Positions 1 to 4,514 of a DNA stretch of 4,514 nucleotides are shown here, in pieces. The notes below the pieces were generated by a model, which was given only the letters and a program-made list of their open reading frames with translations, was not told where the DNA came from and did no database searches. Each line of letters begins with the position of its first letter. The stretch's first letter is position 1. The position numbers and the translations under genes are program-made. Origin of the DNA: a virus (taxonomy: Duplodnaviria; Heunggongvirae; Uroviricota; Caudoviricetes); the IMG/VR virus record IMGVR_UViG_2734482548_000006. The stretch is one strand, 5' to 3'.

Positions 1-47
1 AATATCTCCCCGGCAGCCTTCAGGGAAAAATATCATCAGATGGCTGC

Positions 48-401
48 TTAAAAAAAGAACAAATGGTAGTGTCCGCTATTGCCAGTACACCTCAATTGCT
101 CTGCGGCTTCGCTCAGAGCTGGCGTATGTTCCCGGCCTACTGATTCACACAGGTAATCAACGAAACCGGACACCAGTTTTCGTTCGCGAGGCGTGATCGC
201 CCCACCGACCGGAGTCCAGTAATCGAAACCCAGTTGCAGGAGTTTGAAAAAACGCTTGTGGAATGCGTAGTTACACACACGCTTAAAGTCTGCGTGTATC
301 CACTCACCTATTTTGATTTGATGCAGAAAATCGCAACTCTCCGGCGTCGCCGGGAGAAGTAATCCGGAAGAGGTTTGTTTGACCAGTTGTATATGTGCCA
401 T
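48..401 (-). CDS. Hypothetical prophage protein, about 117 aa (MAHIQLVKQ...HYHLFFF)
   Basis: Minus-strand ORF with stop TAA at 48-50. ATG at 399-401 is preceded by GGAG about 7 nt upstream; the listed ORF extends to a TTG at 443, which is a less likely start. Follows the upstream 95-aa gene by 38 bp. No family recognised. Confidence 0.55.
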   Translation of the reverse strand: MAHIQLVKQTSSGLLLPATPESCDFLHQIKIGEWIHADFKRVCNYAFHKRFFKLLQLGFDYWTPVGGAITPRERKLVSGFVDYLCESVGREHTPALSEAAEQLRCTGNSGHYHLFFF

Positions 402-439
402 CGGCTTTCTCCGGTGGCACGGTGTTACACAGCAGGAGT

Positions 440-727
440 TCAATCCTGCTCAAGATTGTAGATGAGTTTATTCTTCAGCAAAAGCAGAAAACCAGCCTTA
501 AAACCAATCTCTTTCAAAACCCGTAATGATGTGACAAATTCGTCCTCACGCAAAATAAAACCGTCCGTCAGAAGTCCATTACAAAAATAAAATAACACAG
601 CACCGCTCTTCCTTTGTTGAGATTGCAAACATCTAATGCGGCAATGGCTGACAATCGCTCCATTCTCAACGCGCACAGCATAGAGGCCATTTTCACTAAA
701 AATTTCACGCAATTCTTCGATTTTCAT
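440..727 (-). CDS. Hypothetical prophage protein, 95 aa
   Basis: Minus-strand ORF with ATG at 725-727 and GGAAGG about 9 nt upstream; stop TGA at 440-442. AT-rich coding region. No family recognised. Confidence 0.55.
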   Translation of the reverse strand: MKIEELREIFSENGLYAVRVENGAIVSHCRIRCLQSQQRKSGAVLFYFCNGLLTDGFILREDEFVTSLRVLKEIGFKAGFLLLLKNKLIYNLEQD

Positions 728-844
728 CTTCAGAATCCTTCCAGATAAATAGCTCTCCCCTGTTCGGGGTCCATCCCTCTTCTCCCTGCGCGCTACTTAA
801 GTGAGTCGATTCTATCTGCGAAGGTGCGCGAATCAAATTCACCG

Positions 845-901
845 GAAATAAACAACAAAAAACCCGCCGAAACGCTGAGAGATCACAGCGATGGGCGGGT
901 T
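845..901 (-). terminator. Rho-independent terminator at the 3' end of the hok transcript
   Basis: Plus-strand aacccgcc (861-868) pairs with ggcgggtt (894-901), with an inner cgctg/cagcg stem (873-877 / 886-890). On the minus-strand RNA the stem is followed by a U-rich tract (complement of 845-860 gaaataaacaacaaaaaa). On the plus strand no T-tract follows, so it is unidirectional. Confidence 0.65.
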
Positions 902-907
902 AAGTGC

Positions 908-920
908 GGGTGCGTTGAGG
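908..920 (-). promoter_or_regulatory. fbi-like 3' element of hok mRNA, complementary to the 5' tac element
   Basis: Plus 908-920 gggtgcgttgagg is nearly identical to the reverse complement of plus 1289-1302 (agcctcaagcaccc), so the mRNA 3' region can pair with its 5' end with a 1-nt bulge. This is the fold-back architecture known from hok mRNAs. A 9-bp perfect hairpin (941-949 gggcgggga / 960-968 tccccgccc) lies between the hok stop and this element. Confidence 0.5.
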
Positions 921-976
921 ATGCCTGACACATCAGAGGTGGGCGGGGATGGGATCAGCTCCCCGCCCGGTCACTC

Positions 977-1132
977 TTACTTCCTGGATTCGTAGTCTAC
1001 GAAGACAGCGACCTCCGTCTGGCCGGTTCGGATTCGTACCTCACAGAGGTCTTTCCTCGTTACCAGTGCCGTCACTATGACGGTTAAACAGATGACGATC
1101 AGGGCGATTAACATCGCCTTTTGCTGCTTCAT
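977..1132 (-). CDS. hok: Hok/Gef family type I toxin, 51 aa (MKQQKAMLIALIVICLTVIVTALVTRKDLCEVRIRTGQTEVAVFVDYESRK)
   Basis: ATG at 1130-1132 with AAGGAG 9 nt upstream; stop at 977-979. Single transmembrane helix followed by the conserved RKDLCEV...TGQTEVAVF periplasmic tail, very close to E. coli HokC/HokD as recalled. Confidence 0.9.
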   Translation of the reverse strand: MKQQKAMLIALIVICLTVIVTALVTRKDLCEVRIRTGQTEVAVFVDYESRK

Positions 1133-1189
1133 AGCCTGCTTCTCCTTGCCTTTCGGCATGTAAGAGGCTAACCTACATGTGCAAAGCAT
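977..1189 (-). CDS. mok: Mok-like overlapping reading frame (70 aa), an in-frame N-terminal extension of hok
   Basis: ATG at 1187-1189 opens a frame that runs in-frame through hok (MLCTCRLASYMPKGKEKQA + Hok). Same layout and size as the mokC/hokC pair (69/50 aa) in E. coli. Confidence 0.55.
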   Translation of the reverse strand: MLCTCRLASYMPKGKEKQAMKQQKAMLIALIVICLTVIVTALVTRKDLCEVRIRTGQTEVAVFVDYESRK

Positions 1190-1262
1190 GAAATTGGCCT
1201 CAGATTAATGTTAAGCGTCTTGCCGGACGCGTAATGTTAACTGGGGCTTTTCTCTATCTGCC
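1181..1262 (+). ncRNA. sok: Putative Sok-like antisense RNA (position approximate)
   Basis: Family expectation: Hok loci carry a short antisense RNA opposite the mok leader. A candidate plus-strand promoter is TTGCCT (1146-1151), 17 nt spacer, TAACCT (1169-1174), and there is a small hairpin gcgtc/gacgc (1215-1230). No clean terminator was found, so the boundaries are a guess. Confidence 0.25.
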
Positions 1263-1288
1263 TTTTGGTGTTCATGCCTGAAGCAGAT

Positions 1289-1338
1289 AGCCTCAAGCAC
1301 CCGCAGTCATTCTACTTACCTCGCCAATATGAAATCAA
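1289..1338 (-). promoter_or_regulatory. hok/mok promoter and mRNA 5' tac element
   Basis: On the minus strand: -35 TTGATT (plus 1333-1338), 18 nt spacer, -10 TAGAAT (plus 1309-1314), predicted start near 1302. The transcript would begin GGGUGCUUGAGGCU (complement of 1289-1302), resembling the 5' end of plasmid R1 hok mRNA. Confidence 0.5.
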
Positions 1339-1359
1339 TCAGAAAGGTGCCCCATAAAA

Positions 1360-2046
1360 TCACTCCTTCTCTTCTTTACCGTAGTGGAGTTGACCAATTT
1401 TGATAAGAGGGCGTCCCTGAGATTTGCGGTGTAGATTGGTATCGCGCAGAGAATACACACAGCCACAATATTCCTGCTGATAGAATTTTTCGCGCTTGCT
1501 GATTTCAATCATACGGGACGAGCCGCCCTGCTTGCGCCAGTTATAATCCCAGTACACCATGCCCGGATAATGCGCGACGGCTCGCCGCCCACAGTCGTTA
1601 ACCTGCTGCATATTTTTCCAGCGTGAAATGCCCAGTGAACTGCTGATCACACTGAAACCATTTTCAGCGGCGTACAGCGCTGTCCGCTCAAAACGCATGT
1701 CAAAACACATGGTGCAACGGATCCCTCGTTCGGGCTCCCATTCCATTCCTTTGGCTCGTTCAAACCAGTTGTCTGTGTCGTAATCAGCATCAATAAACGG
1801 CACGCCGTGTTGTTCAGCAAAGCGAATATTCTCATCCTTACGAATTAAATACTCTTTCTGAGGATGAATGTTCGGGTTGTAGAAAAAGATGGTGTAGTCG
1901 ATTCCCGAGGCCTGAAGCGCCTCCATCACCTCACCGGAACATGGAGCACAGCAAGAGTGCAGTAGTAGTTTGTTTGCCCCGTTTGGGAGCTCCAATTTGG
2001 GCCGTTTGAAATCAGCAACTGTCATAAATATGTTTATTGGGGTCAT
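1360..2046 (-). CDS. queH: QueH-like protein (DUF208 family, epoxyqueuosine reductase homolog), 228 aa
   Basis: ORF with ATG at 2044-2046 (alternative ATG at 2025) and stop TGA at 1360-1362. Carries the motifs I associate with DUF208/QueH: [12 protein letters not shown] near the N-terminus, [15 protein letters not shown] and EYCGCVYS. No strong SD at either start. Confidence 0.75.
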
Positions 2047-2193
2047 AAAAATATCAAAGAGTGTAGCATTAGAACGGGGCTATCGGAAACAGATGTGTGA
2101 CTGCTCCCCGCCCTTTCGGGTGGTCTCCTGATGATTTGAGGGTGCAGAAATCCCTCCGGTTAAGGATTAAATTTTTAACAGTGCTAAATTTAA

Positions 2194-2550
2194 TTATTCA
2201 GTTCTGGATTTTGTCGCCCTGCGTATCCGCGCTTTCGCGTTACGCTCAATCTGTATCAGCTTTTCTATATTTCTCCGCCTTTCCTGTTCCTCCTGGCGCA
2301 ATAGCCTTACATCATCTGCCAGTCTGGTTTCTCTTTTTGCCACAGAGAGCATCCAGTCAAACGGCTCCACAACCGCACCGCAGATTTTACAGCGGACCTG
2401 ACGCTCTTTTTCGTCAACCCGTACAGAGGCGTGATGGCAATATGGTCTTTCCGATGGCTCATAAAGAAAATTAACCTGATTACGAGGGTCATCCTCTTTT
2501 ACCGGAAATAAAACGATATTGCTTAACTCATCTTCTGGTTTTATTTCCAT
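2194..2550 (-). CDS. Hypothetical small protein, 118 aa: Cys/His-rich Zn-ribbon-like segment followed by a charged coiled-coil-like tail
   Basis: ATG at 2548-2550 is preceded by AAGGAGAGGAGC. The ORF is open further to an ATG at 2605-2607, which abuts the upstream stop as TGAATG, so the start is ambiguous. Contains PYCHHASVRV...RCKICG, then RLLRQEEQERRRNIEKLIQIERNAKARIRR. Confidence 0.7.
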   Translation of the reverse strand: MEIKPEDELSNIVLFPVKEDDPRNQVNFLYEPSERPYCHHASVRVDEKERQVRCKICGAVVEPFDWMLSVAKRETRLADDVRLLRQEEQERRRNIEKLIQIERNAKARIRRATKSRTE

Positions 2551-2607
2551 GCTCCTCTCCTTTGATGCGAATGCCAGCGGTAATTGAAGCCTGATAGCTA
2601 ATTTCAT

Positions 2608-3030
2608 TCACAGTATCGCCTCCTGAAAATTACCCTGATAGAAAGCCAGTACACGCTGCATAGCTTCGCTCTTCCGGCACTCGCGACAGATTATATTCAG
2701 GCGCCTGTCGTAGCGGCGTATTTCTCCGTCAGGTAATGACCAGATAAGGTCCGGATCAACAACAACCGGTTTCCTCACCTTTACTCTCGAGAGTTTTTTG
2801 CGGGCGCTTTGCCAGTCCTTGCGAGCCTGTTCAGACGGGAATAAGCCGTAGCCAGAATTATATACATCACCACTTGCGACCAGTTCTATGCATAAGCGAC
2901 CGACAGACGCACGACTGATACCTGTTTCATCTGACAACTGCCGAATCGTGACCCGACCGTCCTGATGCACGAGTTCCACAATTCGCGTCTTCAGTTCTTC
3001 CCGCTGTTCGGGAGTAAAAGGTTTCGCCAT
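2608..3030 (-). CDS. ren: Ren-like protein, 140 aa, with predicted HTH/winged-helix N-terminal region
   Basis: ATG at 3028-3030 with AGGAGG 4 nt upstream; stop TGA at 2608-2610. C-terminus NIICRECRKSEAMQRVLAFY resembles lambda Ren (NLVFKECRQSAAMKRVLAVY, recalled from memory). Sits immediately after the P-like gene, as ren does in lambda. Confidence 0.7.
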   Translation of the reverse strand: MAKPFTPEQREELKTRIVELVHQDGRVTIRQLSDETGISRASVGRLCIELVASGDVYNSGYGLFPSEQARKDWQSARKKLSRVKVRKPVVVDPDLIWSLPDGEIRRYDRRLNIICRECRKSEAMQRVLAFYQGNFQEAIL

Positions 3031-3044
3031 AAATCCTCCTGAAA

Positions 3045-3727
3045 CTACTTAACAACCCTCGAATGGCTAACATTCGGACGCCAGCTCTCCCAGTTAAAAT
3101 TCACCCAGCGCCCGNNNNNNNNNNNNNNNNNNNNNNNNNNNNNNNNNNNNNNNNNNNNNNNNNNNNNNNNNNNNNNNNNNNNNNNNNNNNNNNNNNNNNN
3201 NNNNNNNNNNNNNNNNNNNNNNNNNNNNNNNNNNNNNNNNNNNNNNNNNNNNNNNNNNNNNNNNNNNNNNNNNNNNNNNNNNNNNNNNNNNNNNNNNNNN
3301 NNNNNNNNNNNNNNNNNNNNNNNNNNNNNNNNNNNNNNNNNNNNNNNNNNNNNNNNNNNNNNNNGATAGCTGCCGCTAAGTGATTCTTCCCGGTACCAGG
3401 TTTTCCGCTGAACGCAAAATTTGTACACCCGGTCATCAGTTCATCGGCGATGGATTTCGCCTGGCTTAACGCGTATCGCTGGCCGTCGTTCTGCACCTGG
3501 TAATTCGCAAACGAGCATTTACGGTGCAACGGCTGGATGCCTGAGCGATTCAGAATTTTTTCCACCCGCAACTGGCGATTCAGGCGGTTGATCTCCTCGC
3601 TACGTTTCTGGCCTTCAGCAAGTTGCCACTCGCGCCACTCCGCTACCGTTCTGAATGGGGCGGTTACATGTGGCGGGGTCAGTCGGCGGATGCGTTCCAG
3701 AACGCCGCCTGTCGCAATATTTTTCAT
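3045..3727 (-). CDS. DnaC-like replicative helicase loader (lambda P functional analog), interrupted by an assembly gap
   Basis: ATG at 3725-3727. The N-terminal 121 aa align closely with E. coli DnaC (MKNI..., SGIQPLHRKCSFANY, Walker A GKPGTGKNHLAAAI). After the N-run, the C-terminus WVNFNWESWRP...VVK with stop at 3045-3047 matches the DnaC C-terminus (WVIFNWDSYRSRV). The frame does not carry across the 250-N gap, so the gap length is nominal. Confidence 0.85.
3115..3364. other. Assembly/scaffold gap (250 N)
   Basis: Continuous run of N from 3115 to 3364, inside the DnaC-like gene. Confidence 0.99.
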
Positions 3728-3733
3728 GGTCCG

Positions 3734-4410
3734 TTACCCCCTGAAGCCTGGCGGGATCGCACTGTCCGGCAACGAGACGGTGTTAACCTGTCGGAGCAAC
3801 GTCTCAGGCCGAACACCTTTCGGCGCGAACAGGCCCTGGTATTCATTGGCGATGCTGTGTCGAATCACCTGCTCAGGTGTAAAACCCTGCTGACGGAATT
3901 TTTCCAGTTCCCGTATCGCCCCGTTAGCGCCCTGCTCCGTTCGAATCGGTTTTCGCAATGCCTGTCTGAACCGGACCCACTCATGCCAGAGTGTTTCCGG
4001 CAACCAATCGGGCAGCTCAATAGCCTCCGGCTCGAATTTTTTAGACGCTCGTTTTTGGCGAGGGGGAGATCAGTATTTAGATCTTCCTCTTCCTCTTCCT
4101 CTGGTAACGCTTTTTGATCCGTTTGTGTAACGCTGGCAGCGTTACCTTTTCGTTTCAGTTCGCGTATTTTTGTTACTCGCTCGTTTGTAACCGCCCGTTT
4201 TTTTTAGAGCTTTTTCCGTTATGACGTTCAAAGTTAGGTAGAGAAAGCCCTCCGTCATTTTCGACCAGCCATCCAACCTGAATTAACGCATCAGCAAAAC
4301 CAGACATAAAAGTGATGCGATCTATTGCACTTTTTGTAACGCCGCGAGCGTTACAATCTGCATTACCGTCTATCATTTGTTGATCCGCCCATGCCCAGAA
4401 GCGAATAACC
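3734..4410 (-). pseudogene. Phage replication initiator with DnaT-like C-terminal domain (lambda O functional analog): 5'-truncated by IS and split across three frames
   Basis: The C-terminal frame (4003-3734) ends NTVSLPDSAIPPGFRG, matching the E. coli DnaT C-terminus (NTVSEPDSQIPPGFRG, recalled), and stops 7 nt before the DnaC-like start, as in dnaT-dnaC. The N-terminal piece (frame of ORF 4173..4436) hits a stop at 4173. A third frame is open and protein-like between about 4203 and 4040 (KKRAVTNERVTKIRELKRKGNAASVTQTDQKALPEEEEEEDLNTDLPLAKNERLK). Restoring one base in the A8 run (plus T8 at 4198-4205) and one in a run at about 4037-4066 joins all three. Confidence 0.6.
4082..4102. repeat. 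Hexanucleotide tandem repeat (TCTTCC)x3.5, encoding an EEEEEE acidic linker in the replication protein
   Basis: Plus 4082-4102 is tcttcc tcttcc tcttcc tct; in the middle minus-strand frame it reads P-E-E-E-E-E-E-D. Confidence 0.5.
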
Positions 4411-4514
4411 TGAGGTAGCCTGAGTTTAACGGACACTCCTTCCTGAAATAGAATGGCATCAGAAGGAGCTAATAATGAGCAGAAAAACCCAACGTTACTC
4501 TAAAGAGTTCAAAG
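4411..4514 (+). mobile_element. Left end of an IS3-family insertion sequence (possibly IS600-like), continuing beyond the window
   Basis: Plus 4411 begins TGAGGTAGCCTGAGTTTAACGGACAC. This shares the terminal TGA and the GGACAC at positions 21-26 with the IS3 left inverted repeat as recalled. An SD (AGGAG, 4464-4468) and the ATG at 4475 lie about 65 bp inside the end, the usual position of orfA in IS3-family elements. Confidence 0.6.
4475..4514 (+). CDS. IS3-family transposase OrfA, N-terminal fragment (MSRKTQRYSKEFK...)
   Basis: ATG at 4475 with AGGAG 6 nt upstream. The translation MSRKTQRYSKEFK has the YS.EFK motif typical of IS3-family OrfA HTH proteins. Truncated by the window edge. Confidence 0.65.
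   Translation, partial: MSRKTQRYSKEFK

Follow-up and report, generated by a model that had tools for sequence, protein, structure and literature searches.

A probable IS600 insertion in the replication-initiation gene of a Rac-like prophage remnant from a Shigella sonnei-type genome

The window, by which we mean the whole 4,514-nucleotide stretch of DNA that was analysed, consists of a prophage fragment with IS600 sequence at either end (Table 1). The fragment carries a truncated DUF1367 gene, a Rem-like gene, hok/sok, a QueH gene, an open reading frame of 118 aa, a DUF977/Ren-like gene, a DnaC-like gene and the remnant of a replication initiator gene. The initiator remnant and the DnaC-like, DUF977, QueH and hok genes all lie on the minus strand. 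The intact reference is the uninterrupted prophage of Escherichia coli FDAARGOS_944 (locus L001), where the gene order is cI-like, cro-like, ydaT, a gene for a 262-aa protein, ydaV (encoding a DnaC-like ATPase) and DUF977, followed by a hypothetical gene, QueH, hokD, a second hypothetical gene, DUF1367, DUF1364 and DUF1133. Within the DnaC-like (ydaV) gene, 314 real bases are replaced by a run of 250 Ns at 3115–3364; because of this difference, coordinates to the right of the run are 64 too low, and reading frames called across it are meaningless. The hok frame at 977–1189 (minus strand) matches the Pfam family HOK_GEF (1e-22), and the sok RNA at 1127–1302 (minus strand) scores 117 bits in Rfam, where the gathering score is 59. 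Judged by these matches, hok/sok at 977–1302 is an intact type I toxin-antitoxin locus. QueH is likewise intact and full length (Pfam, 1.9e-65).

Table 1. Features of the window, with coordinates counted from its first letter.
Feature	Position	Strand	Remark
Right end (nt 1171–1264) of a second IS600	1..94	+	Same orientation as the copy at 4411; truncates the DUF1367 gene
Prophage fragment between the IS600 copies	95..4410	-	Colinear with the uninterrupted prophage, L001 632–5019
Initiator remnant from codon 36, pseudogene	3734..4410	-	98.7% identical to the intact 262-aa CDS
Site of 10-bp deletion	4060..4067	.	One copy of the near-repeat AGGGGGATTT/AGGGGGAGAT gone (alignment)
T8 run, +2 frameshift	4198..4205	.	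A8 on the gene strand; A6 in the intact gene (alignment)
ACC, near-side copy of the 3-bp target-site duplication	4408..4410	.	
IS600 left end (nt 1–104), IS3 family	4411..4514	+	Window ends inside the element
IRL, left terminal inverted repeat TGAGGTAGCCTGAGTTTAACGGACACT	4411..4437	.	19/27 positions match the reverse complement of IRR
Promoter-like site TTAACG-17-TAGAAT	4426..4454	+	Inward toward orfA; consensus scan, pattern match only
First 13 codons of IS600 orfA, MSRKTQRYSKEFK	4475..4514	+	ATG at 4475–4477

The last 104 nt of the window match IS600 copies at 104 of 104 positions (100% identity, E = 1e-46, among the best matches listed by megablast), and a megablast search of 5426 complete E. 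coli genomes returned 3210 records that share at least 99% identity with this segment. As a sequence match this is far beyond chance. Copies named in RefSeq served as a proxy for the ISfinder reference in judging the identity of the element; they bear the label "IS3-like element IS600 family transposase," and RefSeq annotates a "programmed frameshift" for the IS600 transposase CDS. IS600, which belongs to the IS3 group of the IS3 family, was first described in Shigella sonnei. The element begins with TGAGGTAGCCTGAGTTTAACGGACAC at 4411, the bases from that point onward being TGAGGTAGCCTGAGTTTAACGGACACTCC, and the alignment with the IS600 of E2865 (L002) begins at exactly this base. In the annotated E2865 copy the element starts at L002 position 2501 and the frameshifted transposase CDS at 2565, which places orfA at IS nt 65, an offset equal to that in the window. 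The sequence AGGAG is found at 4465–4469, ahead of the orfA start codon, and the 13 codons present are identical to the start of the OrfA encoded by the full-length copy described below. An earlier note on this DNA had proposed an IS3-family left inverted repeat at 4411 and an orfA start on the strand opposite to the phage genes, and both proposals are borne out, the repeat being that of IS600.

Since the window contains only the first part of the element, its completeness, its orfB, its right repeat and its target duplication were read from other genomes that carry the same junction. A look-up of the DUF977 protein led to chromosome-length records riddled with IS elements, and the accessions of exactly matching genomes include CP146292, CP023645, CP104419 and JBEAAA. 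The identical junction is on public record in 11 genomes examined, and in each of the 10 whose element could be measured (L020 being the exception) it is a full IS600 of 1263–1264 bp. One copy, that of L006 (CP146292.2), was dissected in detail. The window corresponds to L006 from 13030 down to 8453, with 100% identity except for the N run. The junction copy in L006 is 1264 bp long, differs from the E2865 IS600 at 2 positions, keeps both orfA and orfB open and ends in TGAGG...CCTCA, so that its imperfect inverted repeats have TG...CA termini. OrfA (100 aa) contains the Pfam domain HTH_Tnp_1 (1.5e-20). OrfB (272 aa) lies in the -1 frame, which is open from IS nt 304, and the slippery motif AAAAAAAG (A AAA AAG, A7G) occupies IS nt 316–323. 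The Pfam matches of OrfB are rve (8.7e-26), HTH_21, rve_2 and rve_3, and the protein scores 334 bits with the NCBIfam model transpos_IS3 (cut-off 160). All of the tested sequence-level features that define the IS3 family are present, and the element at this junction agrees with IS600 in its repeats, its orfA/orfB layout, its A7G site and the 3-bp duplication, with no difference found. Extension of the contig, which the earlier note had suggested, thus recovered a full IS600 with orfA, orfB and a right inverted repeat, and the junction copy is a complete and apparently functional element. By analogy with IS911, IS2 and IS3, -1 frameshifting would produce an OrfAB fusion, which would catalyse copy-out/paste-in transposition through a circular intermediate.

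Homology to the uninterrupted prophage breaks at 4410/4411. A search with window positions 3400–4514 identified hundreds of E. coli genomes with an uninterrupted prophage, of which FDAARGOS_944 gave the best match, and the alignments all stop at 4411. The junction itself was found in 0 genomes of the complete E. coli set, where the best matches stop at the same base, and the exact 39-nt junction was found nowhere in a species-representative genome collection, from which we suspect Shigella genomes to be missing. In seven of the junction genomes (L004, L005, L013, L015, L016, L018 and L019) the trinucleotide ACC is present on both sides of the element. These genomes read ...AATAACC, IS600 and then ACCTTCCC, where the uninterrupted sequence is AATAACCTTCCC with a single ACC; in L004 and L005 the flanks are ...GAATAACC and ACCTTCCCTAATGCGG on either side of IS600, and the uninterrupted prophage has GAATAACCTTCCCTAATGCGG. 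The duplicated bases, ACC in the orientation of the window and GGT on the gene strand, are nt 105–107 of the CDS and fall between Lys35 and Val36. A 3-bp duplication of this kind identifies the event as a simple transposition of IS600 into the initiator gene, between codons 35 and 36. The recommended search for a target-site duplication was successful in 7 of the 11 genomes. The length of the IS600 duplication is not stated in PMC9397093.

Beyond the element the genomes fall into several states. A far flank of ACCTTCCCTAATGCGG would signify the simple insertion and GTGAGCTGCCTCGC the variant with a 2515-bp deletion. The simple insertion with the duplication is seen in the seven genomes named above; L006 and L014 differ from the seven, and L017 and L020 have other flanks. 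In L006 the 2515 bp corresponding to L004 4766–7280 are absent beside the right end of the IS. This stretch comprises the 5′ end of the initiator gene, ydaT, cro, cI, DUF1391 and a partial IS600. The deletion in L006 (at 7293) ends within another IS3-family element, and the far flank of L014 is the same. On comparison of these sequences, the loss is a secondary, later, IS-adjacent deletion that varies between strains. As for other IS3-family elements, an intramolecular event or recombination between IS copies could give rise to such adjacent deletions. Because L013, with the simple insertion, and L006 and L014, with the deletion, are all 100% identical on the near side, the window fits either state. 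The proposal that the insertion removes the N-terminus of the initiator stands only in part: it describes L006 and L014, where the later 2515-bp deletion is responsible, whereas in 7 of the 11 genomes the first 35 codons are intact beyond the IS and have merely been displaced. In the drafts L017 and L020 (at about 4000–6000), IS600 is bordered on its far side by the DnaC-like gene from another Rac-type prophage, whose YdaU protein (285 aa) belongs to DUF1376. Either two prophages recombined through their IS600 copies to give this flank, or it is a misassembly.

An open reading frame of 87 aa (4173–4436) spans the junction and fuses nine IS-derived codons to the initiator sequence from Val36 onward. 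This frame is found in 481 blocks of the collection, and the longest contig that carries it measures 2–5 kb in 397 of them, which is in keeping with short-read assembly of an IS600-bounded fragment into a contig of its own.

The product of the interrupted gene, a 262-aa "hypothetical protein" in the reference genome, matches PHROG 2509, "replication initiation protein," over residues 1–262 (E = 1.2e-89), with weaker matches to the O-like PHROG 678 and the primosomal PHROG 6451. It has no match to any Pfam family at E ≤ 0.01, DUF1376 (PF07120) included, and no usable NCBIfam family was found for it. Its homologue in active phages is annotated as "DNA replication protein O." The gene order of the window prophage is that of the Rac-type module (ydaS/cro-ydaT-ydaU-ydaV). 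The module in the record "Escherichia phage Rac" is about 92% identical in DNA, and that of phages vB_EcoS-666R9, vB_EcoS-673R7 and vB_EcoS-613R10, where "DNA replication protein O" is followed by a DnaC-like gene, is about 95% identical. The match to PHROG 2509, the annotation in phages and the Rac-type module together identify the interrupted gene as a phage replication initiator. Its 262-aa product lacks DUF1376, in contrast to the 285-aa YdaU-type protein of L017 and L020, and by sequence it is a different type of initiator in the position that YdaU holds. The name "YdaU family" given in some RefSeq records reflects position or annotation rather than membership of Pfam PF07120.

The remnant of this gene in the window is itself split into two frames (4173–4436 and 3734–4003) by an expanded A-run and a 10-bp deletion (Table 1). 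The 10-bp deletion is common to two genomes that are free of the IS600 insertion at this site, L007 and L010, and to the aligned IS-bearing genomes L004, L005 and L006. The A-run is also expanded in the IS-free genomes, to A8 in L010 and to A9 in L007, the latter being HE616528, S. sonnei 53G, a lineage II strain according to the literature. The presence of both lesions in genomes without the insertion indicates that the initiator gene was probably dead before IS600 arrived, an order of events reached by parsimony over a handful of genomes.

Two kinds of repeat occur within the initiator gene. A GAGGAA hexamer (encoding Glu-Glu) at about 4083–4100 is found in about 2–7 copies among near-identical genomes and forms a small VNTR. 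The perfect palindrome GTAACGC-N5-GCGTTAC occurs twice, at 4127–4145 and 4336–4354, where 0 copies are expected by chance, and a third copy, located beyond the insertion point, precedes the initiator ATG by 13 nt (L007, about 8400–8430). The IS600 insertion parts this upstream copy from the two internal ones. The palindromes may be binding sites for the initiator or part of an origin; in phage lambda, ori lies inside O.

A second copy of IS600, absent from the earlier note, borders the fragment on the left. Positions 1–94 of the window match the last 94 nt of IS600 at 100%, with IRR ending at 94, and in L006 this copy is full-length (12937–14200). The frame next to it, at 96–443 on the minus strand, covers positions 1–101 of the 198 in the DUF1367 profile. 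In L004, L005 and L006 the outer flank of the second copy consists of an integrase fragment and lacks a matching duplication. This side has therefore been rearranged, which points to an IS-mediated event. A prophage fragment of 4.3 kb that is bounded by IS600 on both sides is consistent with a short-read contig broken at repeats. Independent IS600 insertions are found elsewhere in the prophage, in the gene for the 118-aa protein in L010 (10610–11872) and in DUF1367, 62 bp from the window site, in L003 and L012 (12999–14262).

We assign a probability of roughly 0.93 to the reading that the window contains the end of a complete IS600 that, in a genome of the S. sonnei type, transposed into the initiator gene of a decayed Rac-like lambdoid prophage. 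The genome is presumably S. sonnei, an assignment that we base on a backbone 100% identical to 53G (HE616528) and on the exact-match accessions. Several parts of the earlier note agree with this reading. The insertion does lie inside the replication module of the prophage, the remainder of the initiator gene and the DnaC-like gene are cut off from the cro/ydaT/PR side, and the downstream cargo, hok/sok and QueH, has been left in place and intact.

The note had further held that the insertion would immobilise the prophage. A stronger form of this proposal, in which IS600 inactivated a working replication module, could draw on the splitting of the initiator gene at codons 35/36 and on the 1.26 kb of antisense DNA now placed between PR-cro-ydaT and the remaining replication genes; an insert of this size, antisense to the phage operon, would by analogy with other IS3-family elements be polar on PR transcripts. 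However, the 10-bp deletion and the expanded A-run are already present in L007 and L010, and the prophage has been hit by other IS elements as well, which disrupt int, Rha, the Q/holin region and DUF1367. Even in the 53G prophage, which is free of this IS600, IS elements interrupt int, Rha and the Q/holin region, and ydaT is shortened (101 aa rather than 140 aa). Given so many other insertions, the IS600 at 4411 did not immobilise the prophage, and inactivation of a working module by this element is improbable. With two frameshifting lesions already in place as well, the functional effect of the insertion was probably nil. The IS600 insertion would then be one late lesion among many, in a dead gene of a dead prophage.

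A slightly less probable proposal assigns the insertion a significance of its own: the Rac-like early region could be a preferred target of IS600, its disruption could be selected, or the IS600-bracketed hok/sok-QueH block could be retained because it is useful. This proposal draws on a small number of IS600 insertions that arose independently in the region, those in the initiator gene and DUF1367 of the window-type genomes L004–L006 together with those of other lineages described above, and we rate it unlikely. It is more doubtful still that the IS end supplies an outward promoter for the DnaC-like gene and the cargo downstream of it. IS3-family ends do carry promoter parts, which speaks for such a role in general, and no direct support for it was found at this end. 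The sole promoter-like site reads inward on the plus strand, and a consensus scan of 3600–4514 returned no outward site on the minus strand; there is thus no sign of the IS driving the DnaC-like gene or the cargo. In IS3-family elements such as IS911 and IS2, moreover, the outward -35 box lies in the right end, whereas it is the left end that faces the phage genes in this window.

The position of the 4.3-kb fragment between two IS600 ends of like orientation might also suggest a composite transposon that moved hok/sok, QueH and the replication genes as a unit. This arrangement is highly improbable, since the uninterrupted prophage is colinear with the fragment, which in most genomes continues into the prophage across the 4411 copy (copy A), copy A has an ACC duplication of its own, the outer flanks (…AAC, ACC…) form no shared duplication, and the same gene order is found without either IS in 53G. 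Finally, although both ends of the window fall about 100 nt within IS600, in the manner of short-read contigs, an assembly artefact in which a contig end was wrongly joined to a repeat can practically be dismissed, because the same junction is found in the chromosome-length sequences of L004, L005 and L006 and in eight further assemblies.

Simple transposition of IS600 into an already decayed initiator gene, the reading we prefer, accords with what is known of the element. Five IS, IS600 among them, have expanded across all species of Shigella (Hawkey et al. 2020, PMC7373316). IS600 is a documented source of variation between strains and of pseudogenes there (PMC7373316), and it has also been amplified in some STEC (PMC9397093). 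The locus described here resembles the IS-driven decay reported for Shigella (PMC7373316) in the strain-variable presence of the element, in the adjacent deletion and in the independent IS600 insertions within the prophage. The insertion is one event in the known expansion of IS600 in Shigella and is, as such, already known. It matters little beyond annotation, in which the initiator gene should be marked as a pseudogene with three lesions. The IS600-bounded ends may explain why the 4.5-kb piece appears as a contig of its own in short-read assemblies, and the strain-variable states of the locus, with or without the IS and with or without the adjacent 2.5-kb deletion, could serve as a marker for sub-typing. 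The locus adds another example of the documented expansion of IS600 and of prophage decay in Shigella.
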